Shown piece after piece: positions 6,593-48,300 of a stretch of 64,000 nucleotides of DNA. Numbering within the stretch: the stretch's first letter is position 1; each line of letters opens with the position of its first letter. Source of the DNA: a virus (lineage: Duplodnaviria; Caudoviricetes); the IMG/VR virus record IMGVR_UViG_3300034061_004620; one strand, written 5' to 3'. Made by a program: the position numbers and the translations under genes. The notes beneath the pieces are model-generated. The model saw nothing but the letters and a program-made list of their open reading frames with translations, had not been told where the DNA came from and ran no database searches.

Positions 6593-6816
6593 TTTTCCAT
6601 GAGTTCAACTTAGGTGATGTTGAAGATCCTGAAATATACGCTGCCACACCACTTTGTGATTGGCAAAACTCTGAACAGGGTAGGTGGATCATGCAACATT
6701 GCAGAGATCCAAAATACAAGGTATCTGTGGATCCATACAACTATGGTTATAAGGTCATTGTGTATGGAGATCTTACACCCGAAGCCGCAACCTATTTTAC
6801 CTTAAAGTATAAATGA
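6589..6816 (+). CDS. Small hypothetical protein
   Basis: ATGA-coupled on both sides; GDVEDPEIYAA motif. Confidence 0.75.
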   Translation: MIFHEFNLGDVEDPEIYAATPLCDWQNSEQGRWIMQHCRDPKYKVSVDPYNYGYKVIVYGDLTPEAATYFTLKYK

Positions 6817-24026: not shown

Positions 24027-25395
24027 GATATCGGCATTCTTCCCAAAATTCTTTCATTTCCGGGAATGTATTTAAAAAGTTTGTATCTCTTCGTTTGTCG
24101 TGCTCGTTAAAGAATCTAAAAAAATCAGCACGTTGCATTATAACATATTCTTGATCTAATTTGCTACCTTCTTGCATCCAATCTACCACTCGTTGCATTC
24201 TTTGCACTTCGTAATCTTTAAATCCTTGAAATGGTTTATCTTCAGTTTCTAAATTGGCCTGCATCCAATTGACCACATCTTGTAATCGTTTTGCATATAC
24301 AGGTGGTAATATCTGTAAGCTTTGCCAGGTAGGTTGTCTGAGTATGGGTGTATCAAACCAAACTCGTTGATATGTTGTACTGTGTAACCTTCGTAAAGCA
24401 AGAACAGTTTCTAATTGTCTTTTTAAACCTAACACACTTAGATTATTCATAGTAATAATGAATGTTAGACTGTTACGATAAGGAATGTGTCTTAAGAAAT
24501 AATCAACTCTTGCTAAAACTCTTTTATATTCCATTCCATGTCTGATATATTCGGCATGTTCGGCTATTCCGGTATCCAAACTTACATACTGCATGAAATG
24601 TTCAATATTTGTGTTACATAATTGGCTTACATAGCCAAAGTATTGTTCCCATAACTTTTCATCTACACTAAAGTTACTGGTCACATCAATATGCAAATCA
24701 GGTTTAGGAAAGGCCAACACATAGTCAAACACTCGATATGTATTACGATCCATTAGGGGTTCGCCGCCGGTCATTCTAAAATGTTTTAGTCGTGGATATA
24801 AACTGGGCCACCACTCCCAGAATGCATCAACATAAGGGTTATCTTCTCGAACAGGAATAGGTCGTCGGCGACCGGTAAAATGGGAAACATCATTATGAGT
24901 AGTGCTGGTGGGATATCCTCCATAACGTCTAATTTCATCATCCCAGCTACTACTAAACTGAGGACTACAATAGGAACACTTGAGATTGCAAGCATGATTA
25001 AAATTGACTTCCACATAGGAAGGAATAGCATCTTCATCGCCTGATGAGTTCGTGATGGTTTCAAAATGCTCACTTGCCCACGGTTCACCTGATCGGTAAT
25101 GTCTATCACTTAAATTCCCCAAATCTTCTTGTGTCCAACAATAACTGCATTCCTGTGGACGTTCGTTGCGTAGCATAATTTTACGCTGTTCTTTTTTGTA
25201 TGGTGTGTTATGTAACGCACCGGGATTGTCTTTTAATAGTGTGGCGTCTATTTCATGTAATGGTGGATGATAGCAACTGTTTGTTAGACCTGTGGGTAAG
25301 TGTAGACTTACTTGTTGCCATTTAGCAAGGCAAAGACTATTACCAAGTCTGTCTTTCATATTTTCAGCAAGATTTAAAAAATCACTTTTAACCAT
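24013..25395 (-). CDS. Radical SAM protein with N-terminal twitch-like domain (SCYHP variant)
   Basis: LCLAKW...NSCYHP...ECSYCW; CNLKCSYC; TGGEP; VTSN; VSLD. Confidence 0.92.
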   Translation of the reverse strand: MVKSDFLNLAENMKDRLGNSLCLAKWQQVSLHLPTGLTNSCYHPPLHEIDATLLKDNPGALHNTPYKKEQRKIMLRNERPQECSYCWTQEDLGNLSDRHYRSGEPWASEHFETITNSSGDEDAIPSYVEVNFNHACNLKCSYCSPQFSSSWDDEIRRYGGYPTSTTHNDVSHFTGRRRPIPVREDNPYVDAFWEWWPSLYPRLKHFRMTGGEPLMDRNTYRVFDYVLAFPKPDLHIDVTSNFSVDEKLWEQYFGYVSQLCNTNIEHFMQYVSLDTGIAEHAEYIRHGMEYKRVLARVDYFLRHIPYRNSLTFIITMNNLSVLGLKRQLETVLALRRLHSTTYQRVWFDTPILRQPTWQSLQILPPVYAKRLQDVVNWMQANLETEDKPFQGFKDYEVQRMQRVVDWMQEGSKLDQEYVIMQRADFFRFFNEHDKRRDTNFLNTFPEMKEFWEECRYHAQN

Positions 25396-25837
25396 GTTGC
25401 CATTCTAAACGATTAACATCAAATTGATTCCCTAACTCTAACATATATCCTAATGGCGAAGACCCAGTTAGATGCATAGTAATACAACCGTTAAATCCCC
25501 AATAATTTTCATGTGTAATGGTTTTATTTCCTTCCCGCTGACAATAAAATAATTTGTCAATCATATCAATATGAATTGCAAATCCATTAATTAAAATTCC
25601 CACGATTTCTACGGCTTTATCAGCAACAACCTTACCTTTATGAAAAACTGTATCACCATTGTTTTTATTAGAAGAATAAATGGTAATTACTGAAGGCCAA
25701 TTTACTGTAAAACTTATTTGCCTATGATCGTTATCAAAACTATCCTCTTCAAAGACCAATATATCTTTATCATAGATTTTAAGAGCCATTGATCCGTTAT
25801 TATTTTTTATCTTGGTTAAAAATGTTATATTAACCAT
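25388..25837 (-). CDS. Hypothetical protein (beta-rich)
   Basis: 149-aa ORF coupled between two radical SAM genes. Confidence 0.7.
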   Translation of the reverse strand: MVNITFLTKIKNNNGSMALKIYDKDILVFEEDSFDNDHRQISFTVNWPSVITIYSSNKNNGDTVFHKGKVVADKAVEIVGILINGFAIHIDMIDKLFYCQREGNKTITHENYWGFNGCITMHLTGSSPLGYMLELGNQFDVNRLEWQHG

Positions 25838-27245
25838 ATTGTGTTATTTCCTGCTGAGTAGATTTAAAAGTTAGACCGTCGCCTGCACCATGTGAAAAAT
25901 TTAATTGTGAAAGAATAGTTGTTAATGACTTGTGATAATTTAATCTATCTTGTGTAGATACGTTATTAACGTTTGAAATCCAGTAAGTTGGAATTTCACC
26001 TTGTGTTATATTATAATCTTTTTTCTTTCTATCTAATTCGGTGTTTGGCAAAATTGAAGCGAGACTGAATACTACATTCTTTACAGGAAATCGAGCATAC
26101 TGTTTTCTATCTATAAACCATTTTTTTGTGAATTCAAAATCTTCTTTTGTTTCTGTTGGATATCCAACAATTAACAATAGGTTTAAAGGTATTGAAAATT
26201 CTTTAGCCATTTCTAAATGATAATCAATGTCATCGTTAGTGAAGTTTTTTCCTAAATTTATTCTAACTTTTTCTATGACGCTTTCTATTCCTAACAATAG
26301 ACTCCCATTGCTTTCTTTAATTTTTTGCCATAATGTTCTTGGATGTTGATTTTGACCTCTAACTATAAAATAACCGTCCCATGAGATTACATTTGTAGCT
26401 TTGGAATTGTATTCACAAATATAATCTAACAGTTTATTAAACTCTTTCATATTTCCGTTAGTAAGACTATTATAAAAGAAAAAATTTGAAATTTTATATT
26501 TTTCAATTTGGTGCAACATTTCGGAAAAAATATTACTTGCAGATCGATATTGGTATTTTTTCCAATGTTCGATAATATCACAAAATTCGCATGCCCTCAC
26601 ACAGCCTCTACTATCACAAATTGGGATTCCACATTCTTTATATTGTTGAAAATTATAATTATCAAAATTAGGAAATGGAAGATTGTTTAAATCAGTTATT
26701 TGTTGCCAATTTGCAGAGTTAATTCCCGGAAACGACATATTATTCTTCAAATATTGAACTAAACTATATTCCCCATCACCATTTATATAATCATCAATTA
26801 AATTTCTTTCCTTTAGTAGCTCTGCATAACCAATACTTGATTCTGCAATGAAATTTTTAATACCACTGCCCCCAATAATAATTTTTACATTTGGCGCACG
26901 AAATCTAAGATGATAGCATAACCAGATTGTAAAAAATTGATTATCCTGACATAATAAAGATAATGCAATAATTTTTGGGTTAAATGAAATTATCCTATTT
27001 GTACAAAATTCAATAAAAGATTCAATTGCTGCATAATTTTCGCTTGGAATTTCTTGAAATAATAAAAAGTTTTCTAATATTTTCGTGTCTTTACTGTGTC
27101 TAATATACAAATTCGCTTCATTATTAAGATCTATTGCTACAGCAGAAAAACCAGCCGCAATAACCGATGATTTTAAAACTGCCGGTGCTAACACCGGCCT
27201 GGAACTAAAAGTTCCGGCGGTTGAACATATCAAGACGTCAATCAT
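25830..27245 (-). CDS. B12-binding-type (class B-like) radical SAM protein
   Basis: N-terminal Rossmann-like region (IDLN, IALSL, KIIIGG, GDGE), LPFPNF, SRGCVRACEFC, GIES, IVGYPTET. Confidence 0.88.
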   Translation of the reverse strand: MIDVLICSTAGTFSSRPVLAPAVLKSSVIAAGFSAVAIDLNNEANLYIRHSKDTKILENFLLFQEIPSENYAAIESFIEFCTNRIISFNPKIIALSLLCQDNQFFTIWLCYHLRFRAPNVKIIIGGSGIKNFIAESSIGYAELLKERNLIDDYINGDGEYSLVQYLKNNMSFPGINSANWQQITDLNNLPFPNFDNYNFQQYKECGIPICDSRGCVRACEFCDIIEHWKKYQYRSASNIFSEMLHQIEKYKISNFFFYNSLTNGNMKEFNKLLDYICEYNSKATNVISWDGYFIVRGQNQHPRTLWQKIKESNGSLLLGIESVIEKVRINLGKNFTNDDIDYHLEMAKEFSIPLNLLLIVGYPTETKEDFEFTKKWFIDRKQYARFPVKNVVFSLASILPNTELDRKKKDYNITQGEIPTYWISNVNNVSTQDRLNYHKSLTTILSQLNFSHGAGDGLTFKSTQQEITQYG

Positions 27246-27868
27246 ACTATAAAAAAAATTAGAAATTGCTTCACTAATCCAAATTTAGCAAAGTTATTAC
27301 TTATATGCCATTGATTGCGGTCCCATACTAAAATATCTCCTAATGTATGCCGATAGTCAATGTCAATTGGCAATTTTTTTATCAAGGAAAAATTTTTATC
27401 ATGATCAAAATCAGTAAGAACTAAATTATTTTCATCCGTAGAGTTCTGCACCATTTGCTCGTAACTTGGATTAAAATCAGACCATACCTTAAAGGTAATT
27501 GTACGAAAATTGTCCCCTTCAACTAACGGAATCAGAACTGCTTTGTTATGCCTTATAGTTTTTGATCCAAAGCTCATACAATCGGGATAAAGATCTTGTT
27601 GCTTACGACTGTCTACATGTAAAATATAAGGTTTTTTACTTGATTTATATGATCCGGTATCAAATTCGTGATCATTTCCAATTATTTCATTTAATATTGG
27701 ATTCATTGTTTTGTAAATAAAATTTTCTGGTATATGGTATTCAAGATTTTTATTTACAATTCCCACTTCTGCGTGTTGTTCAGGTTGGTTTTTGTAAAAT
27801 TCTTTTATTGACTCTATTGTCTTTAGCTCAAGTATATTTTTGTAAACTTTACTTTTATGATTGTTCAT
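27242..27868 (-). CDS. Probable 2OG-Fe(II) dioxygenase-like protein
   Basis: ILHVDS (HxD), LIPL, GDILVWDRNQWH (distal His), KQFLIF. Start refined to ATG 27868 behind AGGA. Confidence 0.55.
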   Translation of the reverse strand: MNNHKSKVYKNILELKTIESIKEFYKNQPEQHAEVGIVNKNLEYHIPENFIYKTMNPILNEIIGNDHEFDTGSYKSSKKPYILHVDSRKQQDLYPDCMSFGSKTIRHNKAVLIPLVEGDNFRTITFKVWSDFNPSYEQMVQNSTDENNLVLTDFDHDKNFSLIKKLPIDIDYRHTLGDILVWDRNQWHISNNFAKFGLVKQFLIFFIV

Positions 27869-27903
27869 TATAATCCTATTTTGGTTATATTTTTTAGAAA
27901 ATA

Positions 27904-28851
27904 TTACCAACCTTCTATTCTACGTATGACATCAATTTCTGTCATCATTATTTCACTATTACGCTGCCCAATACTGTAGTGATGTTTAAAAAATTCACTT
28001 TGCTTGGGTGTGTAAGTTACTATAGGTAAACCCAATCTGTTTGTCAATGCACTTTCTATTCTTTCGCATCCTTCCTGGGGATCTTCAGTGCTAAAACTGG
28101 TCCATAGTTTTTCAAGCATATCAAAGTCCTGTACATGATGATGATCCCATCCTTCAAGCATAATCATGTATGTGCCTAATCTTGCTCCATACATTGCCCA
28201 GTAACCATTTTCAACGTCTGCACCCACTGAGTGCCAAATACATAAATGATCATAGTTTCTTTTATTCACCCCATCTTCAAATTCTTGTAAAGTGGGCTTG
28301 TGTCCTCTGTTAAGACACATCTTTACACCTTCACGGAATCCGGCTCGCCATGCTTGTTTGGCACTGCCATTGGGATATGTTGTCGAATAACAATTATGCA
28401 TAGCCACATACTTTGGGTCAAAACAAAATTCAACAGCAGTTTCTTCATCGCCCAGGCTGGCCTCATGAGTACGCATACGATTTACAAAGTCCTTGGTCCA
28501 ACAACTAACACCACCGTTGCCATACCTTAACCCATTTATAACATTACGTGCTTTCCATCTAAAAACGTGGTCATGATTCCGTTCATCCAGCGATAATTGT
28601 AAGTTAAAAAATTCTGGATCCGGAATATTGTCTCCATCAACGAGAACAAAACGGTCTGTGTCTGACGCAGCGGCGGCTGCTTTATGCGCTGCATCAGACC
28701 CTTTAACTCCATCAACTCTCTTTGCCCATGGCACCATGTTTTGAATTTGGATCCAAAATTCTTCTTTTTTAGGTTCATCATAGGTTAAGAAAATACAATC
28801 TAAATCTGCTATGTCAACAATTTTAGCCGCTGTAGAATTCTGTGCTGTCAT
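27904..28851 (-). CDS. GT-A fold glycosyltransferase-like protein
   Basis: LDCIFLTYDEP, GVKGSDAAH, FVLVDGDN (DxD), NGLRYGNGGV, WRAGFRE. Confidence 0.65.
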   Translation of the reverse strand: MTAQNSTAAKIVDIADLDCIFLTYDEPKKEEFWIQIQNMVPWAKRVDGVKGSDAAHKAAAAASDTDRFVLVDGDNIPDPEFFNLQLSLDERNHDHVFRWKARNVINGLRYGNGGVSCWTKDFVNRMRTHEASLGDEETAVEFCFDPKYVAMHNCYSTTYPNGSAKQAWRAGFREGVKMCLNRGHKPTLQEFEDGVNKRNYDHLCIWHSVGADVENGYWAMYGARLGTYMIMLEGWDHHHVQDFDMLEKLWTSFSTEDPQEGCERIESALTNRLGLPIVTYTPKQSEFFKHHYSIGQRNSEIMMTEIDVIRRIEGW

Positions 28852-32095: not shown

Positions 32096-33745
32096 TTAAC
32101 TATTTAACTTAACGATAGCCTCAATAGTTCCTTCGGCTGCATCAAATTTATCTTCTAAACTCCTGCCAATTACGTTAAATGCTGAAATTTCATTCTTTGC
32201 ACCAGCACGAGCTAATCCGTTTCCTGCCGCAACCAGTCTGTCACCTTTTTTAACTTTTCCAATTACACGCACAGGCACTCTGCCATTTACTGCTACTGGA
32301 GGATGACTGATATCATCTCCAGCTGCACCATTCATTAGATAAGCTGCTCTTGTGCTAATAACACCAAACACGTCTTCACTTAATTCTTCGTCTGCTGCTG
32401 TAATTTCTTTAACACCGCCAAGTGCAACTACAGTCCCGGCTGGATAAGGTTGGTCACTGCTGAATCTTTCTGCTAAGTCAGCGTATTTAGCTTGCACCGA
32501 AACTCCATAGAAAGTATTAAACCACATACCAGTACTTCCAAGATTTACTGTGGTATTGGATGTAGGTAAAATTGTGTCTGAAACATAAACTGTAGCAAGA
32601 TTAGCTCTGGTAGTGTTAACATTAGCAGCAAAAACATTACCAATCAAACTTGATTGTAAGAAAATGTTGCTCCATCTGTTGGTTGTATTACCAAGCGTGT
32701 AAAAAACATTCGAAGTAGGATTGATATTGGCTGCAAACGTACTTGTACCAACACCACCGCCCAGGATAGTATCAACATAATCCTTGGTAGTTAAAGTAAA
32801 ACCGTTTGACGATGCTGTAGGGCTGGCTGTGGCTTCTGGCAAACCTGATATAGCATTGCCTTTAAGAAAGTTTGTTTGTGCTCCTGCTTTTTTTATACTT
32901 AAATGAAAATCTTTGTTATTAGTTACATTCCTAAGTGTAACTTCACCACTTGTAACCAAGGCTTCAAAATCACTTGCAACACCAACCTTAATTCCGGTGT
33001 CATTGGTAACTGTCAAGGCGCCATTCAACGTACCGCTGACGTCGTTTCTTAAAAACGAACTACCTGGCACACTTGGGAATCCAACACTAACATAAAGGTT
33101 ATTGGCCACGTCTGCAGTGCCCTGGAACGCTTGGTTGGTAATATTAGTTGCCAAATTTAGTCCGGTCTTGACAGTTGCAAATCCGGTCACTGCTGTAGAA
33201 AAAGTTGGCTCTTTGCTCCAAATACCTACCAAAATGTTATCAATATAAAATTTTAATACTACATAGGTAGCAGATGGGCTGGTTGCAACAATAGTGTCTG
33301 GCACTGCACCAGTATTACCAGTTGCGCTGGTAGTTAAAGGACCTACTGCGGTCCATGTGGTTCCGTTGTAAACTTTTAACTGTACATTAGAGGTATCCCA
33401 CCATTGTTCGCCCACAATTGGATTGTTAGGCTGACTTGACCCGGAAGTCATTGTTGCCATAGTTTTCCATGCACTTGCTGCTGTACCTTTAGTAGCTGAT
33501 GTGTTTACTTTCAAATACTTACCGGCAGTATCCCACCATAGTTGTCCTGGCAACGGCGCAGTTGGAGCTGCACCATTTGCAAAGTTTTCAACTAAACGAA
33601 TCATGTTTTCGTTTAGGAAAGTACCATATCCTGGGTAATTTTTACCAACAAGGGTTAAACTTGAGCTAACTTGATCAATGGTGCCATCAGGTAGTCCTCC
33701 TGTAATTAATTGCCCACCATTTGATAATGTAATATTGTATGCCAT
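32096..33745 (-). CDS. Tail fibre-like protein with a C-terminal intramolecular chaperone / autoproteolytic (peptidase G2-like) domain
   Basis: N-terminus SLTLVGKNY..YG...NEN...LVENFA...GQLWWD. C-terminus YADLAERF...GTVV..GG...GVIS...GRVPVRV.G.VKKGD.LV. Confidence 0.75.
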   Translation of the reverse strand: MAYNITLSNGGQLITGGLPDGTIDQVSSSLTLVGKNYPGYGTFLNENMIRLVENFANGAAPTAPLPGQLWWDTAGKYLKVNTSATKGTAASAWKTMATMTSGSSQPNNPIVGEQWWDTSNVQLKVYNGTTWTAVGPLTTSATGNTGAVPDTIVATSPSATYVVLKFYIDNILVGIWSKEPTFSTAVTGFATVKTGLNLATNITNQAFQGTADVANNLYVSVGFPSVPGSSFLRNDVSGTLNGALTVTNDTGIKVGVASDFEALVTSGEVTLRNVTNNKDFHLSIKKAGAQTNFLKGNAISGLPEATASPTASSNGFTLTTKDYVDTILGGGVGTSTFAANINPTSNVFYTLGNTTNRWSNIFLQSSLIGNVFAANVNTTRANLATVYVSDTILPTSNTTVNLGSTGMWFNTFYGVSVQAKYADLAERFSSDQPYPAGTVVALGGVKEITAADEELSEDVFGVISTRAAYLMNGAAGDDISHPPVAVNGRVPVRVIGKVKKGDRLVAAGNGLARAGAKNEISAFNVIGRSLEDKFDAAEGTIEAIVKLNS

Positions 33746-34188: not shown

Positions 34189-37100
34189 TTATTTTCCCAA
34201 AAGTTTTCCAACTTTTCTAACAATTTTGTCTACAGTAGATATACCAGTTACTGCACCTAACAGCACTGTGGTAGTACCCCAAATCAATGCTGTTTTTGCC
34301 CACATAGGAAGTTGTTTGCCTCGTCCAAATTTTGAAATAGTTCTGCAGAGTGGTAATCCTATGTTCATTACAAATCTTCCGGCTGGATTTGATTTTGTAT
34401 AGCCGTCGGCATTCATCCTGTAGGCCATTTCTTCGGCCCATGGTCGAGCTATTACATCTAAATAATGTGCAACAATTTTTGTTTGTAAGTCTTTGCGTTT
34501 CTGTTCGTCCCTTATCCAAGGAAACACTATTTTTCTAAAGGTTGAGCTGCCACCACCTTCTAATAAATCAACAACTGGACCTGCCCAACGCAAATATCCA
34601 TTGTAGGCATCAGGATCTTGGTCCCGTAACATTATACCGAACGCTTGATCGGCTTTGTTCATGGCATGGTCAAAATATCCCAATTCTGCCAACTTTTGAC
34701 AAATGATCTTACATCCGCCGCCACCAGAGCCGCCAGGACCTGGAGGTAATCCGGTTCTTTGTAATTTACCGTAATTGCCAAATTCTTGTTGAAATCTCAA
34801 GGTGGTAAGATTGCCAGCAGAATTGGTAGTTCTCCATTGACCGTTAATTTTAACAAAAATTTCATCAACATATCTCCAATCACCTGCCACTTTGACTGCT
34901 GCTTCGCTTATTGACCGCCAATTTCCATTAACTTTTATTGTAGACAGTCCAGTAGGATAGATTTCAAGCGCCACAGCACCATTTGCACCTTCGCTACCTT
35001 GTTTACCACCTTTGGCAAAAGGTGATGCATAATATCTTAAGTTACTACCTGGGGGATCTGTTCCTACATTATCACGGGTGTCCCAATAAACCTTGTCAGC
35101 TGAATCACTTATACTTACAGCAAAACCTTTGTTTAGAGGCGAATTATATAAATTAAATTTAATTTGTTTTACACCTTTTCCAAAGTTTAAACTGATAGGT
35201 GTAGGAGTAGCTGTGCTATTTTGTGTTACTGTTGTTATTAGAACATCGTCAATGTAAACTTCTAAGGTGCCGGTTGCAGCCGCTCGTAGTTTGTATTCTC
35301 CAGAATACACTGTTTCGAATTGTCTTGTAACAGTTCCTGCACCTTGTCCCGCATCAGTAAACCACATGCCGTAGTCATTGAGAAATCGACTCCAACTTGC
35401 ATTGCTAACCGGAGATAGTTCGCCATCTGACCCTACTCGTTGATCCTGTCTCCATCTGACAAGCACTGCACCAGCTGTCCCTTCGCCACCAATTGAAGAT
35501 TGTAATTGTTGTGGCCTGGTTTGATCATCGGGATTGGCTGCAAACACGTTAGGTTTAGCTGCGCCGGCACCTGCACTTCCGCATCCTAAACTTGATCCTC
35601 TGTTGGTCTGAGTAACTGCATTTTGTCCCAGTGTCTGTCCGGCACCAGGGCCTCCACCAGCAGTGCCTGTTGTATTTGTTGATGTTGGTGTTGCTCCTGA
35701 AGCGCCAGTACTTGATGATCCTCCGGATCCTAATAAAGTTGTTACAGTCCCGCCTAATCCACTATGTGTAATATTGCCCGCTTGACCGCCTTGTAATTTT
35801 AACAGATATGTGTCTGTTACTGTATCTCTAATAGAGGTAAAGCCGCCCGCAACAGCCGGTATAAGAGTCAAATTAGCATCAGTAATAGTTCCTGCTGTGT
35901 ATGGCGTTAACTGTGTAACACCTCCTTGTCCACCAGCACCAATGCAAATTTCATAAAGTCTACCAGGTACTACAGAAATGGTTCTATTAGTTGCAATTGC
36001 TCCTTGCCCACCACCAGCACCTCCTTGTGTTAAATTTCCGCTTCCGCCGCCTCCTCCGCCGCCGGTTGCAGAAACTAAAGTGATTGAGGTTACACCACTT
36101 GGTGCAACAAAGCTTACATTACCGGCGGTATGTTTAAACAATTGATTAAATGGGTAGTTACCTCCCGATTGCCCACCAAAAGTGCTGGAATCACCTCCGC
36201 GAACAGTTCCGCCTGCGCCGCCGCCCCAGCCACCGCCGCCTCCACCACCGCCGCCTCCGTCTCCGGTTACACCTTGTCCGCGCTGACCTGCTGTGATATT
36301 ATAATTTGGATGATTTGAATTATCTACATTTTGTAATTCTAAGGCGGAGACCCCAGCATAAATCTGTGCAATATCTGGATATGCTGTCGCTCCGTTTCTG
36401 ATTTTGTACAAAGTTGCATTGTTACCATCATTTCCTGCGCCGCCGCCGCCGGCTCCACCGCCGGCGACTGCAACCACATTACCATTGACTATAATCAGCG
36501 AAGCTCCGCCTCCGCCTCCGCCTCCACCCGATGATCCGCCTGGGCCTGCAGGGTGTCCGTCGGCGCCACTGAAACTTGGAAAGCCAGGCAAATTTAACCT
36601 ACTTGCACCTCCAATACCGCCGGCAGCACTTCCTGCACTGCTACTACCTCCAGTTCCGCCATCGCCTACTACTACTTCGATCTGATCCCCGACCTTGACA
36701 CTGAATTGTGTTTTGTGAAATTGACCAGGGGCTCCAAGGCCGCCAAGACTGCCTGCATCGTTACCGCCACCACCACCGCCAGCACCCCAGAGGTAGGCCA
36801 CTATATCGGCATTGATAGGAGATGTAAGACTGTATCTACCGCAGGTTTGTGTGTATTCTGATACCACTGCTGTGCTTCTTGTATCCCAAACAACATTACT
36901 TTCTGCATCAGTTATATTCATAGCAAAGCCAGCTGGTCCACCGGCTTGTGCTACCTCCATCCTAATTTGATTTATACCTTGAGCTAAAGTTATTTTTGTA
37001 GGTACCGGAAGCGTTGCAAAATTTGTGGTCACATGACCCCAGTAACCCCAATAATAACCACCATAACCGTACCAGGGCCAATACCAGCCGCCATACCATC

Positions 37101-37512
37101 CATTATAGTATGGACCCACTGCACCAAAACCATCAGTCCAGCCATTTGGATAGTAAGTTCCGTTATAATAATTTCGATTATAGTAAGGACCGTACCACCC
37201 ACCCCACCACCACCAATGATGGTATTCCAAAGTTTGCGTAGTACCGCCTACTTTGAGATCGTTAATAAAAACTTCACCTAAATTATCTGCACTTGAATTT
37301 ACAAAGTAATCGCCTGTGTAGGGAGCGTCAAAAATTCTATATATTGTAAATTTTTGCCTTGTTCCGGAGGTAGTTGGCCAAACTGCATATTGATTAAGAA
37401 ATGTATTCCATCTTGAATCAGTTCTTGGATACAGGACAGCTGGACTTTGCACTGGATTCCCGCTGGGTCCAGAAATTCCAAATATATTTACAATTGGTTG
37501 TCTTTCTGCCAT
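34189..37512 (-). CDS. Glycine-rich tail fibre / adhesin with a duplicated beta-sandwich domain, a W/Y/G insertion and a C-terminal CKIIC domain
   Basis: Poly-Gly GGGGG/GAGG tracts, two W..FLN.Y..W...WDTR domains, KVNGNWR/KVAGDWR/KINGQWR triplet, hydrophobic plus basic C-terminus. Confidence 0.75.
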   Translation of the reverse strand: MAERQPIVNIFGISGPSGNPVQSPAVLYPRTDSRWNTFLNQYAVWPTTSGTRQKFTIYRIFDAPYTGDYFVNSSADNLGEVFINDLKVGGTTQTLEYHHWWWWGGWYGPYYNRNYYNGTYYPNGWTDGFGAVGPYYNGWYGGWYWPWYGYGGYYWGYWGHVTTNFATLPVPTKITLAQGINQIRMEVAQAGGPAGFAMNITDAESNVVWDTRSTAVVSEYTQTCGRYSLTSPINADIVAYLWGAGGGGGGNDAGSLGGLGAPGQFHKTQFSVKVGDQIEVVVGDGGTGGSSSAGSAAGGIGGASRLNLPGFPSFSGADGHPAGPGGSSGGGGGGGGASLIIVNGNVVAVAGGGAGGGGAGNDGNNATLYKIRNGATAYPDIAQIYAGVSALELQNVDNSNHPNYNITAGQRGQGVTGDGGGGGGGGGGWGGGAGGTVRGGDSSTFGGQSGGNYPFNQLFKHTAGNVSFVAPSGVTSITLVSATGGGGGGGSGNLTQGGAGGGQGAIATNRTISVVPGRLYEICIGAGGQGGVTQLTPYTAGTITDANLTLIPAVAGGFTSIRDTVTDTYLLKLQGGQAGNITHSGLGGTVTTLLGSGGSSSTGASGATPTSTNTTGTAGGGPGAGQTLGQNAVTQTNRGSSLGCGSAGAGAAKPNVFAANPDDQTRPQQLQSSIGGEGTAGAVLVRWRQDQRVGSDGELSPVSNASWSRFLNDYGMWFTDAGQGAGTVTRQFETVYSGEYKLRAAATGTLEVYIDDVLITTVTQNSTATPTPISLNFGKGVKQIKFNLYNSPLNKGFAVSISDSADKVYWDTRDNVGTDPPGSNLRYYASPFAKGGKQGSEGANGAVALEIYPTGLSTIKVNGNWRSISEAAVKVAGDWRYVDEIFVKINGQWRTTNSAGNLTTLRFQQEFGNYGKLQRTGLPPGPGGSGGGGCKIICQKLAELGYFDHAMNKADQAFGIMLRDQDPDAYNGYLRWAGPVVDLLEGGGSSTFRKIVFPWIRDEQKRKDLQTKIVAHYLDVIARPWAEEMAYRMNADGYTKSNPAGRFVMNIGLPLCRTISKFGRGKQLPMWAKTALIWGTTTVLLGAVTGISTVDKIVRKVGKLLGK

Positions 37513-37514
37513 AA

Positions 37515-38624
37515 TTAGGTATACTTAAACCAGATATCTCCGTCATTACCAAGTGTGTTGACTGGATCAGCGGTACTAACAAATTTTCTACTTCCGTCCC
37601 AGAACACTGATCTGGTCATAACATATTGTGTAGTGGCAACTTGAGTGTTGTTTGCCCCAAATGTAGGAGTAGGAGCGACTACATTTCCTGTGAATGTTGG
37701 GCTGTCTTTGTCGGCTTTAAGATTTATATTTGCCACTAATGCAGCGGATTGAGCCAAGTTGACTGAATTGATTTTGTCATTTAATGAAATTATATTAGCA
37801 TTGGCTGATGATACGTTTGCATTTAGCACTGTCACATTTGCCAACATGGCATTTTCTACTGCCACTGTTTGTGCCTGAGCGGCTGCAATATTTCCAGCAA
37901 GTGTGTCAACATTTCCTGTAATTGCAACATATGTGTCAAGATTTATTTGATCTACTCTATTGTTAGTTGCCCTTAGAGATATTTGCACATTTGCCGCGGT
38001 TAAATTTGCTCGAAGTTGATTTTCTTCGCTAATTCTTTGCACCAAATTGGCATTAATGACCGCTACATTCGATGATATAGCAGAAGTCGCGTAAAATCGT
38101 AAATTTTGTATTTCGCTATCTACATAAACTTTTGTAGGAATTCCAAAATTACTTGTTGCATTAGCCAACACTGTAATTAAACCACTACTGCCATTGATGT
38201 TTAATACATTTGTACTAACACCGTTTACGTTGGCAAATAAGCTTATGTTACCATTGTTGTACTGATTGTTTATAACTACATTACCAGTTAAATCTTTTAT
38301 CTGAAAATCGTTTGGCCCTATATTGAGATTGCCTGTTAGATCTACATTGCCTACTATTTCGCTGCCAACTGTGATCCATTGGTCCCCAGTATATACTTTA
38401 ATATTGTTTACATTAGTATCATACCATAACTGACCTGTAGTGGGAAACGGTGGACTGTTGTCAAAAGCAAAATTTTCTAACAAGCGTACAAAGTTTTCGT
38501 TGGTTTGGTCGCCGTAATTTTGCACTAATCTTCCGAACAGGGTCAAGCTTGTGCTGGTAGTATCTTTGGTTCCATCTAATACAACAATAGTTGTACCATC
38601 TGTTTTTGTTACAAAATATGACAT
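37515..38624 (-). CDS. Tail fibre-like virion protein (N-terminal domain paralogous to 32096-33745)
   Basis: SLTLFGR...YG...NENFVRLLENFA...GQLWYD; Asn/Ala coiled coil; SPTFTG...TQVATTQYV fibre repeat; GNDGDIWFKY C-terminus. Confidence 0.75.
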   Translation of the reverse strand: MSYFVTKTDGTTIVVLDGTKDTTSTSLTLFGRLVQNYGDQTNENFVRLLENFAFDNSPPFPTTGQLWYDTNVNNIKVYTGDQWITVGSEIVGNVDLTGNLNIGPNDFQIKDLTGNVVINNQYNNGNISLFANVNGVSTNVLNINGSSGLITVLANATSNFGIPTKVYVDSEIQNLRFYATSAISSNVAVINANLVQRISEENQLRANLTAANVQISLRATNNRVDQINLDTYVAITGNVDTLAGNIAAAQAQTVAVENAMLANVTVLNANVSSANANIISLNDKINSVNLAQSAALVANINLKADKDSPTFTGNVVAPTPTFGANNTQVATTQYVMTRSVFWDGSRKFVSTADPVNTLGNDGDIWFKYT

Positions 38625-39326: not shown

Positions 39327-42300
39327 TCATGGTGTATAACTTGGTTCCTCTCTAATAAACTGAGCAGCGAGCGCGGTGCTGCCCTCTAATCCCACTCCAG
39401 TGTTAAGTGGTATCCATAGATTGCTTTGAGTAATTGTTTCATTTACCAAAGTAACATTACCATTTGCATCTACCTGCCCTAAGATTTCCATGGCTCTAAC
39501 ATTGGCTACAGTGCCAAGATACGTGTTGTTTAACTGATTAAAAATAGTTAGCACATTTGAGCCAATAGTTAAATTACCCGTCACAAAATGCACTGCAACT
39601 GTGTTTGAAGAAACCACATTGCCGAGCAATCTTACATTGGCTGTGTTACCAGATTGTACAAGATAATTTCCAATATTTGCTGTGATTGGGCTACCTAATG
39701 TGATTCTCCAGGTCACGTTGGCTGTGGTATTGTAATTGCCAGTAACAGTGGCAAATTTTGGCGCCGAATCTGGTAACACTTGTACCAAGCTTGTGTCAAC
39801 AACTTTAGAGTTAGCTAAGTGCAAAGTTGCTGCACCTGTGCCATCAACTCCTCTACGCAGTTGAGAAAGAGTGTTTACAAAAACCTGTCTCACACTGCTG
39901 TTACTGATATATGACGTAGAGTTGGCATATACATTACCTAACACCAAATATGTGTTGCTGTTGTAAGCAATTAAACTGTCAATGCTGTAGAATGTGTTAG
40001 CAGTCCAAGAACTGGCTGCTGCTATTTTTGCACTATCATACTTTTGATAGTAATGGATCAATTCACCGTTAATAAATATTTCGCCTGGTATCCCTGAAGC
40101 TGCTCCAGGATCTGGCAGTACCGTTACATCGCCTACAAAAATATCATGATCAGCTACTCCCAAATTCGCGCTCAACATCGTGGTAGCATTGGCGCTGATT
40201 CTATAAAATTCAATGTTACCGCGCATGGGTTTGAATTCTCTAAATCCGTATGTAGCTGTGTTGGAGCTATTGTTAGTAAATGTTCTTATTTCTAATGCAT
40301 CATATATTCGTCCAGGAATCAATTCTTCTGGTGCGTGACTGTGATAGCCATCAACGTAGCTTCCGCCCACGATATTGATATCTTCAGGTCTGGTACCAAG
40401 CGCAGTGTCTTTGTAAAAACTTGCAATATTGGAATCTAATAGATTGTCAATAGTAAGATTGGTTATCTTGACATTGGCTGTGCCTCCTGTGATAATTTCT
40501 GATATACCAGCTGTACCAGCCACACCGTTGATTTGTATTGTGTTCGCCGACACTGTAAATCCTGTTACACTGTGTATGATTTGAATAACATTGGCATCAG
40601 CATAGTCATGTAAAATAAATGCGTTTGCAGTAGTGTTTGACTGTGTAATGTAGTCGCCTGCCTGAACATTCGTTACATTTGAACTTAATGTAATGGTGTA
40701 TATGGTTTCGATTGGAGGACCCGATAACATCATTTCTGTGTGATCAACACTAATAACCTTGAAATCGGCGTCGTTTTTAAAGTCAAAGTTGTATTGCCCT
40801 CTTATACGAATTGTATCATCTAATTCAAATCCGTTTTCAAGAAAATCTACGGCTTGTATATTGGCGCTGGTAATTTTCATTCCGGTATAATTAAATCCAA
40901 TAATGTTACTTGTGAAAGTAAAACTATTAGCATCAAATCTTTTTCCTTGAATTTCGTTGCCCGGAAATCCTACACCGAACATCAACTGTTCCAAGTCTTT
41001 ACCTGGTCTTCCAACTTCCGGGAAATAGTAGGCTGATATTCTATCAGCCGCATTTAATAATATATTTCCACTATCTACTTTGTTATATCTTGTAAAATCA
41101 AAAATTGATTGTGAACTTATATTAGCATTAGTTGCAAGGTATGCTTCATTGTTGTAATAAATGAGATTTCCACTGGTAATATAGACATTAGAGTCAATGG
41201 GAATAATACCATCAGAATTAAAATTGTACTGTCTAATTTCGTCTGTGCCGGAGTCTGACACATAAATTTTTGTACCATCATAACTTACAAACATGCCTGT
41301 AGGGGTGTTTGTTTCAAGGTTAAAACTGTTAGTAAATACGGCAGTTGAAACGTCCCAATTGGTGGTTAGATTGTATTCATTTATACTATCACTTTGTTGT
41401 CCAATAACATATAGTCGTGAACCATCTGTTTTAAATCTAATGGCAGTTGGAAAATTATCCTTTGGCGCTATTGACAATGATTTACCAGAATAGTTGGCAG
41501 TGGATATTTCCCACGGTACTGTCATTGTGTATTGATATACTGTATCATTTAGTGTGCCTAAAATATACAAATTCAGTCCATCTTGACTTAATTCTATTGC
41601 ACGAGGGCTTGATTCTTCACTGCTTATATCCAATGAAGACACAACCGATGCGGTATTAACCATCCAGGATGTGGCCAAACGATACTGATAAATTGAGTCA
41701 GTGTTTGTACCAATGGTGAACATTTCTGTTCCGTCATCCTTTATGAATAAGCCTTGTACATTTGTATCTTGTGGAGCTAAATTGGCTGCGCCAATATTTG
41801 CTGCTGTAGAAACATCCCATGGGATGTTTAAACTGTATTGATAAATCCTATCTGTACTATTTCCAACGATGTACATAGCTGTGCCGTCGCCTTTAAAAAA
41901 TACTTCAGTCACATCGTTGTCTTGTGAGGTTATCACGGTAGATTCTACATAACGTAATCTATCTAAATTCCATGCATTTGCTTTGTTACCATCAACCACT
42001 ATAGTTGATTGATATGCAGTATTGGGTTGCCATTCAACTATGTTACTTGAATAAGCTATCCTATCAAATTTTAAACTTGTTGAGATTCCGCGTACGGTAT
42101 TATAACTGCCGTCCTGATTATATTCATTATGCAGTAAAGGATATGCTGTGGCGCCTTCACCGACACCATTGATAAAAACTGTAGGTATGCTGGTGTACCC
42201 CGATCCAGAATTCGTGACAAAGATTCCTGTTAGTTGACCTGTAGTTGAATTTATAGTGGTAATAGCAGCAGCACCTGTTCCGCCGCCGCCAACTATTTCA

Positions 42301-45300
42301 ACATTAGGTGGTAGAATATAATTCTGCCCAACATTGCCTAATAGATACCCAGATACTTTGAATTTATAATTTTCTGCGTAAGTGTTATAAATTGGAACAC
42401 TTTCAAATAGGGCTGCATCTGACGATTTGGTCACGTCCGGCGATCTAAAAGTTTCCTCCGATTTAAAATATCTTGCTGGCAAATCAAAGTCCGCCCAATT
42501 ACCAGTGACCTCATCTATTTTACTGTACTGAGGAACAAATTCCTTAATAATTGTTCTATAAGGTTTAACTTCTTTAATATAATCCTCGTAAAAACTTTGA
42601 TTGTCTCTTATATAATTAGGTAGTTGTTCCAAGGTACGTAAACTGTGATATACATCAATGAAACTGCTTTTAAAAATCCAGTCTGGATTTTTTTGTTCTC
42701 CAATTATAAAGTTAACTATCGAGAAAAACAAAGTATTGAATTCTATAGCCAAACTATTGATAAGAATTTCTTTGTACACACTGTCAAAAATTTGTCCAAC
42801 TTCTTTGGCCGCCACTGGATCAAAATCAACTATATCAAACACCGTTGAATCAAATCCTGCTCCATATTTTATTTCATACAGAGTGTCTTTGAATTGTACT
42901 GATGCATTTTGCGCTGCAATCAAAGTCAAACTCAAATCGGCTTCTACATTAAAGATTAACCAATTGCCTATTCCATCATCTAAAATTTTTACATAATCAT
43001 TTGGTATTAAATTTAGCGACAAAATCTGACCATAAGTGTCAACTACGTATTTTATTTCTTTACCGGTTTCGTATTGTTCGCTGTACCAATCTATTTTGCT
43101 CCACCATATAGATGTTTTATAACTCTGAATAATGTCTAACTCGAACTTTTTTGTGTTGCCGTTAAACTTGTAAAGTGTCCATCTTCCATCAAATCTGGCA
43201 TCATTCCTAATTAAAATTGTGTATCCGTCTGCAAATGCATCAACATCTAAATATTCAATTTCAGTAAACGAGCCGGCTTCGGCATCATATCCTGAAGGGA
43301 CAACATCTTCGGAATATAAAGTAGCCGGGTTTGAAATTAATAAAACAGGATTTTTTTCAAAAATTCTATTCAACTGCAAAACAAAATTCTTTAATGCTGA
43401 TAATCTGTTTACAAAGATTCCCTGTCTTGGCCTTATTAATAAACCAATACTGTTCTCAAGAGGCAGTTTTGGGTCAGGTACAATTTTACCTGAATCATCA
43501 AAACCCACAAGACTATCTTTCATTTTGTTAAGAATACGTGCAGGTATTTTTTCGTTTGGATTTCCTTGCTGTATCAATTGATATTCGTTATGTATAAGAT
43601 TTGTATTCCTTGAAACAGCGGTGTCAACATGTAATACCACGTCGTTAGCTATTAAATTATTAGAAATATTGTACAAGGCCAAGCTATTCTGCGACAACGC
43701 AGCCATGTATGGAATATTTTGATCTTTTGGATTACTAATATATTTTTCCAAAGATTGAATACTTAGAGATCTCTTAGATTGTAATACATCTACAGAAGTT
43801 TTATTTCCCACCCAATAGTAATACTTTTGTGATATGATTCCAGTTGACGGATCTACTATAGTTACGCTTGTATAAGCCGAATTGTCTGGATACTTAGGGA
43901 TACCGTCTTGTCCAGAATTAGTATACTGACTTGGTAGGAAATTGCTTTCTACCCATTCGTAAATTTTGACTTGACTACCAGGAAAAAGAGATCCCCAATT
44001 TTTTTCTCTATACTGCAATGGGCCTTGCTCATATTCGATAAAACTTGACTGACTGGTGTCAAACCATGTCTTCCCAACGTGACGCGACGACCAATAAAAA
44101 TTACTATTTTGAATTTGATTGGTTCCTTGTGCCACGTTATACGCAGCAGGATCAAATTCTTCTTTGTAGTCCAATTCTTGGTCTACTATTCCTAACAATT
44201 TTCCTTTGGCTGGATCGTAAATATCGAAGAATGAAATAATTTGTTGCTGTTTTTTATTATAGATAAAAGCAGAATTGATTGTGGCCGGGTCAACTTGTTT
44301 TTCCTTGTATCTTATTAAATCCCAACCGCCTGTGTTGTTTTCGTTATAGTAAGCATAGATACTTCCTCCACCAGATACAATATTATAGTCGTTGGTAACG
44401 CCGGCTACAAGTGTGCCATTGTAGATACTGGTACTGGCACCAAAATTAAATCCGGTATCTAAGTCGGGTCCTACAAGTTTTTGAGTATAGGCAAAAATTG
44501 CTGGATTGTCTTGCGATTCAAAAGGATTTTCCATCAAATCATATATGTAGACTGCCCCTGAATCTTTGGCTAATGCAACAAAGGTTGTGCTATTACTATC
44601 AAATGTTGTTAATGTGAACGAAGTGTCAAATGTGGTTGGCACAGAAATGTCGGCACCGTCGCTGGTCACCGCCAACATTCCCGACACTTGTGACAAAGCT
44701 AATGCTGTACCAAATCTTTCTCCGTTCAAATTTGGATGCTTAATTGTTTGAGCAGCGGTATAAATTTCTATGCCTAAATCGTATATAACAGTTCCTACAC
44801 CCATCTTTATGTCAAGTTTATTGTTAGCTACTGCACTATCACTTGTGATTTTTATTTTATTGTTGAAATTTTCAGCTTGTACGCCTGGAATACTGGCTGC
44901 ATTAATAAGCGATATTACACTTGCTAAAGTTGTTCCGGCCACTGTAAGTGTTCGGTCATTGATAACAAAAGTATCACCGGGCACTACAGTAGGATTTTCA
45001 ATTGTTCCTGTCACAATCCCATAAACTCTACCGTTGTTTACATAACGAGTAACCAATCCTTCACTGTAATGCTGTTCGGCATAGTAAGGACTTGCTACAT
45101 AAACATTGCACCCGGTGTTGCATACTGCCACCGCACTACCAAATTTTTGTCCTATGATGCCACTTATTGACGGGTACAAATCTTGGGTAGGTTGAAAATT
45201 ATTTGTTTCGACTCTTATTTTTTGGCCTATCACAGGTGTAGCAAATGGAGGAAACTGTATAGCACTGCTGCCAATCAAATAGTAATCAGTTCCTTGTACT

Positions 45301-48300
45301 AATTCTTGATTATTAAATGTAACTCTAAAAACATCCGCAACTGGCTGCGGCAAATTGAAAGTTCCAGAAACTCCGTCGGTGGTAAATTCTGCTATTGTTC
45401 TATGATAAACATTTACTTTACCGTTGTTGTCAATATCAAAATTCGTATCCAAGTTTGATCCTACTACTATCACAGACCCGTCCTTGTTGGTCACAACAGA
45501 CGTACCAAAGTTAGCGCCTGGAGTTGAGCCCGATATAGTGCCTATCAATTTATAAAACTTTGATCTTCTAATTAAATCAATGCGTTCAAAATTTACTGGG
45601 GCAGCAACGAAACTAATGTTGTCTACTGGTCCATTATTTGATACAGTTATTGTTAAATTGTTTGCAGGTGCAGAGCCACCAAGGCTACTACCCAATATTG
45701 TTAATGTATCGCCATTGGCGTAACCAGATCCGCCGTTGATTCTTGATACTGAATAGGCGCCAGAATTGCTATTAATAACAGTAAATGTGGCGCCAGATCC
45801 TGTACCACCTGTAGCTGCTAAGTTATTGTAAGTTAGTGTTCCGGCACCAGTAGCACCGGTACCTACGGTTGTAAAGTCTATAACGGCATTGGCAGCGGTT
45901 GTTAAAGTATAGTCCACTGTAGGAATATATTCAGCCGATCGCAGTGTAGCAAAAACTACAACATCACTCCTGCTATCTACTGCTGAGGTGAGAGTAAAAT
46001 CTGTAGCACTACCAGTGCCTACTATGCTTTGAGCACCTTCTGTTCTTGTTACGAGTGCATAACAAAGCACTTTATCTGCCCCAGGAGAACCAATGTACAT
46101 ATAACTGCCGTCGTGACTCATTGCAATTGCACTGCCAAAATAATCTGTAGCTACACCTGTGTCGTCGGTAATAATCTGAATTAAAACTCCATTGTCATAC
46201 ATGTACACGTAGCCTGTTCCAGACTGACTATCTGGAGCTCCTACAGCAAAGTATCCATTGCCATTGGCAACCACTTTGCCGTAGCTATCTAATCCTGTGC
46301 TGTTGCCCCAGAAAAATGAACTTGGTGCCCATGAGTTATTACCGGCACGAACAAAAATAGCTGCTCTGCCTGTTCCTGAGTTTGGGGCACCAGCATACAA
46401 AAGTGTTCCTGTGCTTGGATCCAGACTTACTGCCTGTCCAAAATTATCATTACCGCTCATCTTACTTGGATCTAATTCTACTTTGTTGATAAACTTCCAA
46501 GGACTTGTTTTGTTATATACTCCCCAATTTTGTTCGGCGTCTAAGTTGTTAACCCATATTTTATCGTTTTCTACCCAACCCTGAACTGGTCTCACAGACT
46601 CAACATCGCTGGGTACATTTATTTTAGTTGAAGTAAGTTGAAATAATATTCCCGAACCCCCTACTGCTTGTTCGTCTTTTATTTTTTGTAAATTTTGATA
46701 CATGGTAATAGTAAATCTATTTGTATCTACTACGCTAATAACTTTGTAAACTCCATCATACCTCGAATCAAAATTCTTAATTACGATCAGATCAGATTCT
46801 GACAAGCCATGATCTCTATCAAAATAAACTTCTACAGTATCATCAATAATATATCTCAATGCAAATAGCGATCCTTCGATTAAACTGGCTCTATACACGT
46901 TCCAATTTTTTGTAAAGTCTCTTGCTACCCAAATCTTGTATCCTATACCAATGTTATTAACAATGGTTGTTAAAGTTTCATAATCTTCTATGTCAAAGAT
47001 AGTGGCATCAATATCGTCAAGATTTACGAATCCTGCCACCGGTAAAGACTTATAGACCTTGGGTTGACTATTGGTTTCTGCTGCAAAAAGTTTGGCCGCG
47101 TATTCGCCAGCAGACTTAAAAATATCACTTTGATCAAATGCAACGACGTCTGGTTCTTTGACAACTGTGTCATCTACAAATTGTAAAGCAGTAGGGTTAC
47201 TACTAAATGCAGATTCATTTAATTCAATTTCTATAAATTTATTAACGTCAGTAGCACCATATTCGCCTATCCTTACTGCCCAGTTTTCATAAAAATTAAC
47301 TTGAGTTTCAAGATTGTTAAAGTTAGCGCCTTTTAGAGCATTTATAGCATTTACTGTACCTTTTTGCTTTATCAACCCTTGGTAAAATTTACTCTGTGTG
47401 GTTGCGTCAATACCAAGATTATTAAAGTATTGTCTATTTCTAAATCCAATTAATCCATTGCTGAATAATTGAGAATCCTCGGCAATTGGTTGGTTATCTA
47501 TGTCGTAAAAATTCACCCCTTGCTGAGCATTTGTTGCAAAATTGTTGATAACTCCAGATCTTAATTCTGATGATGATATCAATTTCCATAAGTTGGTTTG
47601 GAATTGGTCTGAAGCAGTAACATTTTGTGTGGCTGTGTAAAATCTAAATTTGTATTTGACTATAGACCCTTTTAAATAATCCTGCCCAGGTAACCATTCA
47701 TCCACTTTATCGCTGCTGTAGATAAAACCTGGCAATTCTAAACTGCCGTTCCACCCACTGGTTTTTGCGCCTACCAACTTCAATCTATATTGTCTATTAC
47801 CCAGTTCTGGTACGTATAGAATATCATTGAAAACCGTGATATTGTCTAAAATTAAAAGATGTTCAAATTGAACCAAATTTAATTCAGCGAAGCCGATAGT
47901 TTGATTTGCATTTGATTTAAATGTAAATGTGTTGCTACTTCTATAAGCAGTAAAATTATTTTTGATGATTGGTTTGAAATTGACGTCTAACACCCTACTC
48001 GAATAAGGAGTATTTTTAATCTCGTCCACAACCGACGATTCGTCAAAAACTTTCAGTTCAGTGCTTACCGGACTCAACACAATTATATTACCCGATTTCC
48101 ATCCTTGTGTGCTCCAGTGTAAAAACTCTTTAGCACTTAAAATCCAGTCTTTTTGTTCTTTTAAGTCATTGTCTCTATCAACAAAAATAAATCCTTGAGC
48201 CAACAAATATCTTTGGTAACTTACTAAAAAATCAACAACTTGTTGCCGTGAATTAAATTCAAAACCATACGGCACAGTGTACTTGGCATTTTTAAAATCT

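Follow-up and report, generated by a model that had tools for sequence, protein, structure and literature searches.

A tryptophan-, tyrosine- and glycine-rich loop inserted into a PA14-type lectin domain of a fibre-like protein from a freshwater jumbo phage

The window analysed here is a stretch of 64,000 nucleotides (guanine and cytosine content 37.5%) of the IMG/VR virus record IMGVR_UViG_3300034061_004620, whose source is an uncultured freshwater jumbo T4-like phage with a genome of about 352 kb. One of its genes, located on the minus strand at 34189-37512, encodes a modular fibre-like protein of 1107 amino acids, designated P0002. Residues 97-160 of this protein form a loop dominated by tryptophan, tyrosine and glycine, inserted into a domain whose sequence profile and predicted fold identify it as a divergent lectin module of the PA14 type, such as phage tail proteins commonly carry. 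According to the reading we prefer, to which we assign a probability of about 45%, the loop would be a surface loop of a Ca2+-type PA14 lectin module that has been enlarged to an extreme, serving as an aromatic glycan-contact loop of the L3 type.

A first-pass annotation, made from the sequence alone, had placed the aromatic tract at 37033-37224. These coordinates are correct, and the 64 residues quoted there come from translation of the minus strand. The plus strand at the same positions holds only a Pro/Ile/Thr-rich shadow frame, which gives rise to two spurious plus-strand open reading frames (ORFs) at 37014-37281. The composition had also been counted exactly (17 Tyr, 16 Gly, 12 Trp, 5 Asn and 4 Pro), and the tract contains indeed no Lys, Leu, Ile, Glu, Gln, Ser, Cys or Met. 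The remaining residues are 3 His, 2 Thr and one each of Arg, Asp, Phe, Ala and Val. Two short motifs occur twice, as had been observed: GPYYN at loop positions 12 and 37 and GGWY at positions 8 and 45. Compared with 19,298 overlapping 64-residue windows taken from all ORFs of at least 100 amino acids in the stretch, which contain on average 4.06 Trp plus Tyr (standard deviation 2.46), the tract contains 29, the next highest value being 12. The aromatic content is far beyond chance.

P0002 carries two copies of the domain in question. When residues 1-232 were compared with residues 690-840 by BLASTP, residues 21-93 of copy 1 aligned with 693-764 of copy 2 (E 1e-10) and residues 161-212 with 762-813 (E 2e-9). 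These two matches flank the tract, so that copy 2 lacks an equivalent of residues ~94-160. When 1.84 billion cluster representatives were searched exhaustively with phmmer, only 56 relatives were returned at E<=1e-3, nearly all of which align as two stretches, one on each side of the loop. Projection of both half-domains onto all retrieved proteins gave a length of 0-6 residues for the insertion site in about 75 domain instances. Only in a single orthologous group, and there in the N-terminal copy, is the site longer, measuring 28-64 residues. The tract is therefore a true insertion into a duplicated beta-sandwich domain, as originally described, since copy 2 and the rest of the family lack it, and the aromatic loop is confined to one lineage.

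An assembly artefact, which had been named as a possible source of such a sequence, is ruled out, as the loop is reproduced by four independent lake metagenomes. The identical P0002 protein is present on 6 contigs, the longest of 352 kb. The 701 bases around the loop (36800-37500) recur in 20 runs from 16 studies, nearly all of them lake or other freshwater metagenomes from 2019-2025, with 71-100% of the sampled words recovered; this recurrence marks the freshwater jumbo phage as widespread. In four runs that were not flagged as source, contigs run across the loop with 0 indels, and one independent contig spans 37038-37376 with 0 differences. Only two changes were found within the loop across independent contigs, at 37042 and 37117, and both lie in the third codon position and are synonymous according to manual codon reading. 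No RNA run was among the runs containing loop DNA, which are thus uninformative on expression.

The first-pass annotation had proposed to compare orthologous fibres for presence and variability of the loop. With five loci added from IMG/VR, the ortholog set comprises 22 proteins, the one from the window included, with 16 distinct loops. The same kind of loop is present in the 21 orthologs at variable length, between 28 and 64 residues over the whole set, with 28-31 residues in most orthologs and the longest form (64) in the window. The N-terminal flank of the loop (residues 97-108, 37189-37224, YHHWWWWGGWYG) follows the motif [HR]H[HY]WWWWGGW[WY]G in 21/22 orthologs, the exception being the most divergent ortholog P0019 with HWYWWWWWGYYG. 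The C-terminal flank (residues 147-160, 37033-37074, WYGYGGYYWGYWGH) follows the motif W[YN]GY[GN]G[YW]WG..G[HY], which is kept across the orthologs. Flank codons for Gly and Tyr differ synonymously between the window and two syntenic ortholog loci, L001 and L005, and hence the constraint on the flanks acts on the protein.

Between the flanks lies a hypervariable middle of 38 residues (109-146, 37075-37188), which in other orthologs is absent or comprises 2-20 residues. Compared with the nearest relative, locus L006, 16 of 29 aligned residues of the middle are identical (55%), with 10 gaps in addition, while the rest of the protein shows 87% identity. The composition is preserved in spite of this variation. 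Trp, Tyr and Gly make up ~80% of the loop residues, the pooled distinct loops (553 residues) consisting mainly of 177 G, 154 W, 117 Y, 43 H, 20 N, 13 R and 11 P, and K, L, M and C are absent from all 16 of them. Since the flanks are kept, codons vary synonymously, both population single-nucleotide polymorphisms (SNPs) are synonymous and the composition is preserved, the flanks and composition of the loop are under selection. By analogy, a conserved frame with a hypervariable middle would be the pattern of specificity loops. The middle contains an 18-nt direct repeat with a spacing of 75 nt, corresponding to the two GPYYN motifs, and there are short tandem repeats of 9-12 nt within the tract, a hint that the loop may have grown by duplication or slippage. 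A template of a diversity-generating retroelement was not detected, as blastn-short with the loop DNA against the 64-kb window gave only chance matches of 11-15 nt.

The assignment of the host domain to the PA14 superfamily is based on profile and fold. A family profile built from an alignment of 73 family domains (A2) matched solved PA14 domains, with the best values for RsgI3 (1.4e-10), 6qdi (1.1e-9) and the Pleurotus lectin (5e-6) and weaker ones for Lap/RTX PA14 (~1e-4), anthrax protective antigen (1e-3) and MpPA14 (2e-3). The more distantly related P0021-P0023, in which the domain occurs up to five times, match Pfam PA14 (PF07691) at ~1e-25. The AlphaFold model of the core is confident, with predicted local distance difference test (pLDDT) values of 89-98 for residues 30-95 and 165-215. 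The best structural match in VIA-align was the distal tail protein of phage Chi (8vjh_B, Z 11.1, 130 residues aligned), followed by the Pleurotus lectin (9.6) and rhamnosidase N-domains (~9). Z values for the six PA14 domains were moderate: RsgI 7.9, KmBgl 7.4, Cea1A 7.3, Lap 6.7, MpPA14 6.4 and Flo5A 6.3. Foldseek gave weak E-values against the PDB (~1e-2), its scores being lowered by the disordered loop and termini. The best matches in BFVD (E 2e-9 to 1e-4) were annotated as 'PA14 domain-containing' or as virion and tail proteins, mostly of T4-like cyanophages. Profile and model together, the latter a ten-stranded beta-sandwich as in solved PA14 domains, indicate that the domain belongs to the PA14 superfamily.

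Copy 1 exhibits the predicted signature of a DcisD-N-type calcium site, i.e. D76-N77 on the DD strand and Q189 in the equivalent of calcium-binding loop 2 (CBL2). Within the 73 rows of A2, D76 is found in 67, N or D at position 77 in 66 and N at position 189 in 66; Q at 189 occurs in two rows only, those of P0002 and P0019. In the profile alignment D76-N77 falls on the DD pair of RsgI3, and position 189 meets the Gln that ends the aligned part of RsgI3; by a 17-residue offset this Gln is Q130. Q130 of RsgI3 is a calcium ligand in CBL2, RsgI PA14 variants with DcisN and with Gln bind Ca2+, DcisN being functional, and an RsgI PA14 copy in which N-G replaces D-D binds neither calcium nor ligand (PMC6852018). 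Copy 2 of the fibre has T-G at the position of the D-N motif in 3/3 fibres checked. With T-G in copy 2 and D-N in copy 1, the aromatic loop appears to be grafted onto the copy that looks competent for binding of Ca2+ and sugar. Copy 2 with its T-G resembles the inactive second module of the PA14 dyad of C. thermocellum RsgI3.

CBL2 is described as the specificity loop in RsgI (PMC6852018) and in Epa domains (PMC6308950). In the ortholog set its sequence varies among sub-lineages in step with the form of the aromatic loop. The long-loop forms have AQAGGPAG (window) and AQARGSAG (L006), with Q in place of the near-invariant N189, and the orthologs with short loops have SN.GDVAG or ANQHDVCG.

The strand order in the model indicates where the loop might be situated relative to this site. 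According to DSSP, strand 67-76 runs up to D76, after which strand 78-83 heads away from it and 86-94 returns; beyond the loop, a tight hairpin made of 172-176 and 179-188 terminates at CBL2 (189-195). From this order both stems of the loop would emerge at the pole of the predicted calcium site, a position that follows from strand parity and not from coordinates. In yeast PA14 adhesins the loop L3 lies between CBL1 and CBL2, and a Trp (Epa1) or Lys (Flo1) residue of it contacts the sugar (PMC6308950).

The first-pass annotation had suggested a sticky or glycan-stacking adhesin loop. Given a host domain with a PA14-type lectin fold by profile and model and a kept Ca2+/sugar signature, the adhesive and glycan-stacking part of this suggestion is the most plausible role. 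The Ca2+ site would grip the hydroxyls of one sugar, and the flexible brush of Gly-spaced aromatic residues would add CH-pi and pi-stacking contacts along an extended host polysaccharide, candidates being O-antigen, capsule, extracellular polysaccharide or S-layer glycan. The massed aromatic contacts might raise avidity and shape specificity. The conserved Trp/Gly flanks would function as the stem that holds the brush, and the middle, evolving by indels and substitution, might tune reach and specificity. In a bolder version, which we consider rather improbable, the loop would be a flexible W/Y/G 'all-paratope' brush on a lectin scaffold that grips diverse polysaccharides or other surfaces, with the WWWWGGW and WYGYGGYWG stems maybe adopting an aromatic-zipper structure that would be new and out of reach of present predictors; the loop would then represent a novel type of natural binding element.

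Several observations weigh against a glycan-contact loop. For glycan binding as well as for virion location and loop flexibility we infer rather than observe, and incorporation of P0002 into the virion is read from its gene context. The isolated N-domain of P0002 has no Pfam match even at E<=1, and the placement of the loop at the sugar pole is based on strand counting. The N-terminus of phage fibres is usually proximal to the virion, so that the loop would be located near the baseplate and not at the distal tip. The strong conservation of the flanks is also compatible with a role in structure or in protein-protein contact. The loop is predicted without secondary structure both in P0002 (pLDDT 39-51) and in the ortholog P0007 (pLDDT 26-29), which carries the commonest loop of 29 residues; it may thus be flexible, may gain order only within a complex, or may exceed what the predictor can model. 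A beta-hairpin stem in the manner of a 'Trp-zipper' was considered as well and found no support, the P0007 model having no secondary structure in the loop.

Self-association or packing is another role to be weighed, be it homotypic sticking of fibre subunits or of fibres to one another, coacervate-like cohesion or packing on the adjacent polyglycine-rich block or on a baseplate partner. The near invariance of the flanks over 22 orthologs is what an interface would show, and the loop is situated in the N-terminal domain beside an invariant N-terminal peptide, which is disordered in isolation. Low pLDDT values in a monomer model fit a segment that becomes ordered only in a complex, and fibre N-termini usually dock to the virion. 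Moreover, homophilic adhesion of Flo11 is driven by Trp/Tyr 'aromatic bands' (PMC6308950). Since, however, the middle is hypervariable in length (2-38 residues) and sequence, which is unusual for a fixed interface, and since copy 2 and all other family members manage without the loop, we regard such a role as rather unlikely. An uncharged loop rich in Trp and Tyr might also partition into the outer membrane or the lipopolysaccharide core and thereby hold the fibre or baseplate on the cell. Partitioning into the interface is known from Trp-rich antimicrobial peptides and viral membrane-proximal regions, and the Wimley-White interfacial sum of the 64 residues is -32.2 kcal/mol, the best 19-residue window of the protein (-15.3) falling within the loop. 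The only charges of the loop are one Arg and one Asp, with no Lys and no Glu, and P0002 ends in a hydrophobic segment and a basic tail. But membrane-active Trp-rich peptides are normally cationic and the loop is neutral, and its position within a lectin domain with a kept sugar-binding signature speaks for glycan rather than lipid as the first contact; on balance a membrane anchor is unlikely. It might finally be that slippage or duplication merely enlarged an aromatic loop and that the extra ~35 residues are functionless. Most orthologs manage with 28-31 residues, the 18-nt repeat with its 75-nt spacing and the 9-12-nt tandem repeats lie in the tract, and AlphaFold finds no structure in the loop. 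Such a near-neutral expansion is nevertheless doubtful, as drift should erode the W/Y/G/N/P-only composition of the expanded part, which is kept in two independently diverged long forms (window and L006), as the observed SNPs are synonymous and as the sequence is identical over several lakes and years.

The first-pass annotation had further regarded the loop as a candidate substrate for neighbouring radical S-adenosylmethionine (SAM) and 2-oxoglutarate (2OG) enzymes. On this reading its Trp and Tyr residues would be cross-linked, methylated or hydroxylated. Five tandem paralogs of NF033640 ('N_Twi_rSAM', radical SAM with a twitch/SPASM module at the N-terminus) are located at 17263-25395 and a sixth copy at 5078-6592 (E 1e-61 to 1e-119), and a B12-type radical SAM gene lies at 25830-27245, so that seven such genes are found 7-32 kb from the fibre gene on the same contig. 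Trp and Tyr are targets of peptide-modifying radical SAM enzymes, and the array of twitch radical SAM genes is syntenic with the fibre in L001 and L005, although synteny inside a single phage lineage is not independent evidence. The other observations speak against this idea. No 2OG-oxygenase family was found in any ORF tested in the window, including 27242-27910. Matches to the peptide maturases YhhB, DynA, StsB and WgkB are far under the cut-offs (e.g. 41.8 vs 445 bits), and a leader peptide or recognition element is not evident. The array is surrounded by genes for thymidylate synthase, dihydrofolate reductase (DHFR), dCMP deaminase, a DegT aminotransferase, an epimerase/dehydratase and a carbamoyltransferase. 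The genes for DHFR, thymidylate synthase and dCMP deaminase (3654-5081 and 11789-12232) flank sugar-nucleotide genes, namely the epimerase (6813-7781), the DegT aminotransferase (7778-8878) and the carbamoyltransferase (13195-14706). Because of this location among genes of nucleotide and sugar metabolism, the array suggests nucleotide/DNA or sugar chemistry and not peptide chemistry.

The B12-type gene belongs to a cassette (25388-27910) formed by a 222-aa ORF, the B12 radical SAM gene and a 149-aa ORF. For the 222-aa ORF there was no match in Pfam, NCBIfam or PHROG, leaving its '2OG-like' label unconfirmed. This cassette is missing from the syntenic loci L001 (18585-20905) and L005 (18546-20869), whose fibres keep the loop and in which a 315-aa gene directly abuts the first twitch radical SAM gene. 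The L006 contig carries two B12-type radical SAM genes with 30% identity to that of the window, ~30 kb from the fibre gene, without a clear pattern. No radical SAM gene was found within 10 kb of the loop-less relatives P0024 and P0023, which is uninformative as these belong to other phage lineages. With no 2OG family in the ORFs tested, metabolic neighbours of the array and a cassette absent where the loop is kept, nothing ties the radical SAM enzymes to the loop, and its modification by them is very improbable. The tempting but unsupported link between the loop and the neighbouring array is thereby corrected.

The domain shares several features with known PA14 lectins carrying a DcisD-N site, such as the A-domains of yeast Epa1, Flo1 and Flo5, the clostridial RsgI dyads, Marinomonas MpPA14 and Lap/RTX: the beta-sandwich, the profile similarity and the Asp-Asn motif combined with Asn or Gln. 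Like the yeast adhesins, it has a loop between CBL1 and CBL2 (L3) where an aromatic residue may reach the sugar (PMC6308950), and like C. thermocellum RsgI3 it is present in tandem, the Ca2+ motif being kept in one of the copies only (PMC6852018). The L3-equivalent, however, consists of 28-64 residues of near-pure W/Y/G in place of a short loop bearing a single Trp, the domain from the window is under Pfam PA14 detection, and it is carried by a fibre-like protein of a phage. In fold and in the type of fibre or baseplate neighbourhood there is agreement with the distal tail protein of phage Chi and with PA14 virion proteins of T4-like cyanophages, but the aromatic insertion is absent from all ~75 related domain instances outside the orthologous group. 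The scaffold is thus known in kind and, as far as the sequences indicate, the loop has no counterpart among the relatives of the domain.

A comparable architecture of variation is known from the gp38 adhesins of T-even phages, in which conserved Gly motifs enclose short hypervariable segments that contact the receptor and change through indels and substitutions (PMC12032242). P0002 shares with gp38 the conserved, Gly-containing frame around a hypervariable middle and also has domains of the polyglycine type (Gly_rich_2). There is no sequence relation, and gp38 has four-residue turns on a polyglycine-II sandwich, in contrast to one long aromatic loop on a PA14 sandwich.

The resemblance to mussel foot protein Mfp-3S drawn by the first-pass annotation is one of composition only, with no homology recognised. 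Like the loop, Mfp-3S consists mainly of Gly, Tyr, Trp and Asn and carries few charges. Mussel foot proteins are secreted as free polypeptides in which Tyr becomes 3,4-dihydroxyphenylalanine (DOPA), whereas the loop is tethered at both ends in a folded phage domain and no modification enzyme is linked to it. A word-indexed search for look-alikes of the loop, with proteins <608 aa outside its range, returned only P0002 itself, 5 candidates sharing words with it. A feature search with the loop in the ESM Atlas gave no usable match, and the literature on Trp/Tyr/Gly-rich phage receptor loops or PA14 in phage fibres yielded nothing specific.

PA14 lectin modules are widespread adhesion domains in which a short L3 with one aromatic residue helps to set sugar specificity. 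A lineage of abundant lake phages appears to have replaced this L3 by 28-64 residues with conserved anchors and a fast-evolving centre. If the loop is indeed a glycan-contact element, it would represent a natural experiment in molecular recognition with a minimal alphabet and would mark where host specificity lies in an uncultured group of jumbo phages, and a tagged domain could fish out the host. If it is an element of self-association or membrane contact, it would be an unusual way of fibre anchoring.

The modules of P0002 follow in the order PA14-like copy 1 with the loop, two glycine-rich blocks, PA14-like copy 2 and a C-terminal helical domain, all encoded on the minus strand; the gene was delimited from the ORF list and its translation, and its orthologs are syntenic in L001 and L005. 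The protein begins with a peptide of 29 residues (1-29, 37426-37512; PIVNIFGISGPSGNPVQSPA) which is nearly invariant in the ortholog alignment (A1), has a pLDDT of 44-46 and is possibly a docking segment. The N-terminal half of PA14-like copy 1 (residues 30-96, 37225-37425, pLDDT 89-96) includes D76-N77 (37282-37287), and the C-terminal half (residues 161-215, 36868-37032, pLDDT 92-98) includes the CBL2 equivalent (36928-36948). The glycine-rich blocks comprise residues 233-461 and 462-687 (35452-36816). The second of them matches Gly_rich_2 (PF21722, E 3.5e-09), the only Pfam match of P0002, and relatives of the protein also match ALK_LTK_GRD. PA14-like copy 2 (residues 693-813, 35074-35436), recognised by BLASTP against copy 1, is free of the loop, with a projected loop length of 0. 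The C-terminal domain, located after a Gly linker (residues 936-1107, 34192-34707), was recognised by tblastn and hydropathy; it is helical, starts with CKIIC and contains a hydrophobic segment (1076-1094) and a basic tail. Its final ~170 residues are 52% identical (tblastn) to the end of a protein in Synechococcus phage SynMITS9220M01, a cyanomyovirus, where the matched gene encodes a hypothetical protein between genes annotated 'fiber protein' and 'tail fiber'. In megablast and tblastn searches against isolated phages there was no DNA match, and the C-terminal domain alone was matched, in this one cyanophage.

The gene had been labelled as a tail fibre from the beginning. Its location in a baseplate and fibre module agrees with this label, but P0002 matches no fibre family of PHROG or Pfam. 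From its gene context it can reasonably be taken for a fibre-like virion protein. A baseplate wedge protein encoded in the window is ~36% identical to those of Atu_ph07, SCTP-2 and GAP32. Upstream of the fibre gene are a 4730-aa ORF, a phrog_11259 protein and a fibre-like protein of 369 aa, and downstream a 134-aa ORF and a 549-aa protein. The idea that the C-terminal domain of the fibre and the 134-aa ORF form a pair of CFI-box-like domains was not confirmed, as BLASTP detected no similarity between the two (E 3.7).

The 549-aa protein (32096-33745, minus strand) contains a Peptidase_G2 intramolecular-chaperone autoproteolysis domain (E 1e-06) together with matches to tail-fibre PHROGs, and is likely a self-cleaving fibre or spike to judge from these matches. 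An N-terminal phrog_15511/14394 module is common to this protein and the 369-aa one (37515-38624). The 4730-aa ORF (39327-53519, minus strand), located in the baseplate module, shows faint FG-GAP/WD40-like matches and is conserved, with 4698 aa in L005 and >3776 aa in L001, where it is cut by the end of the locus.

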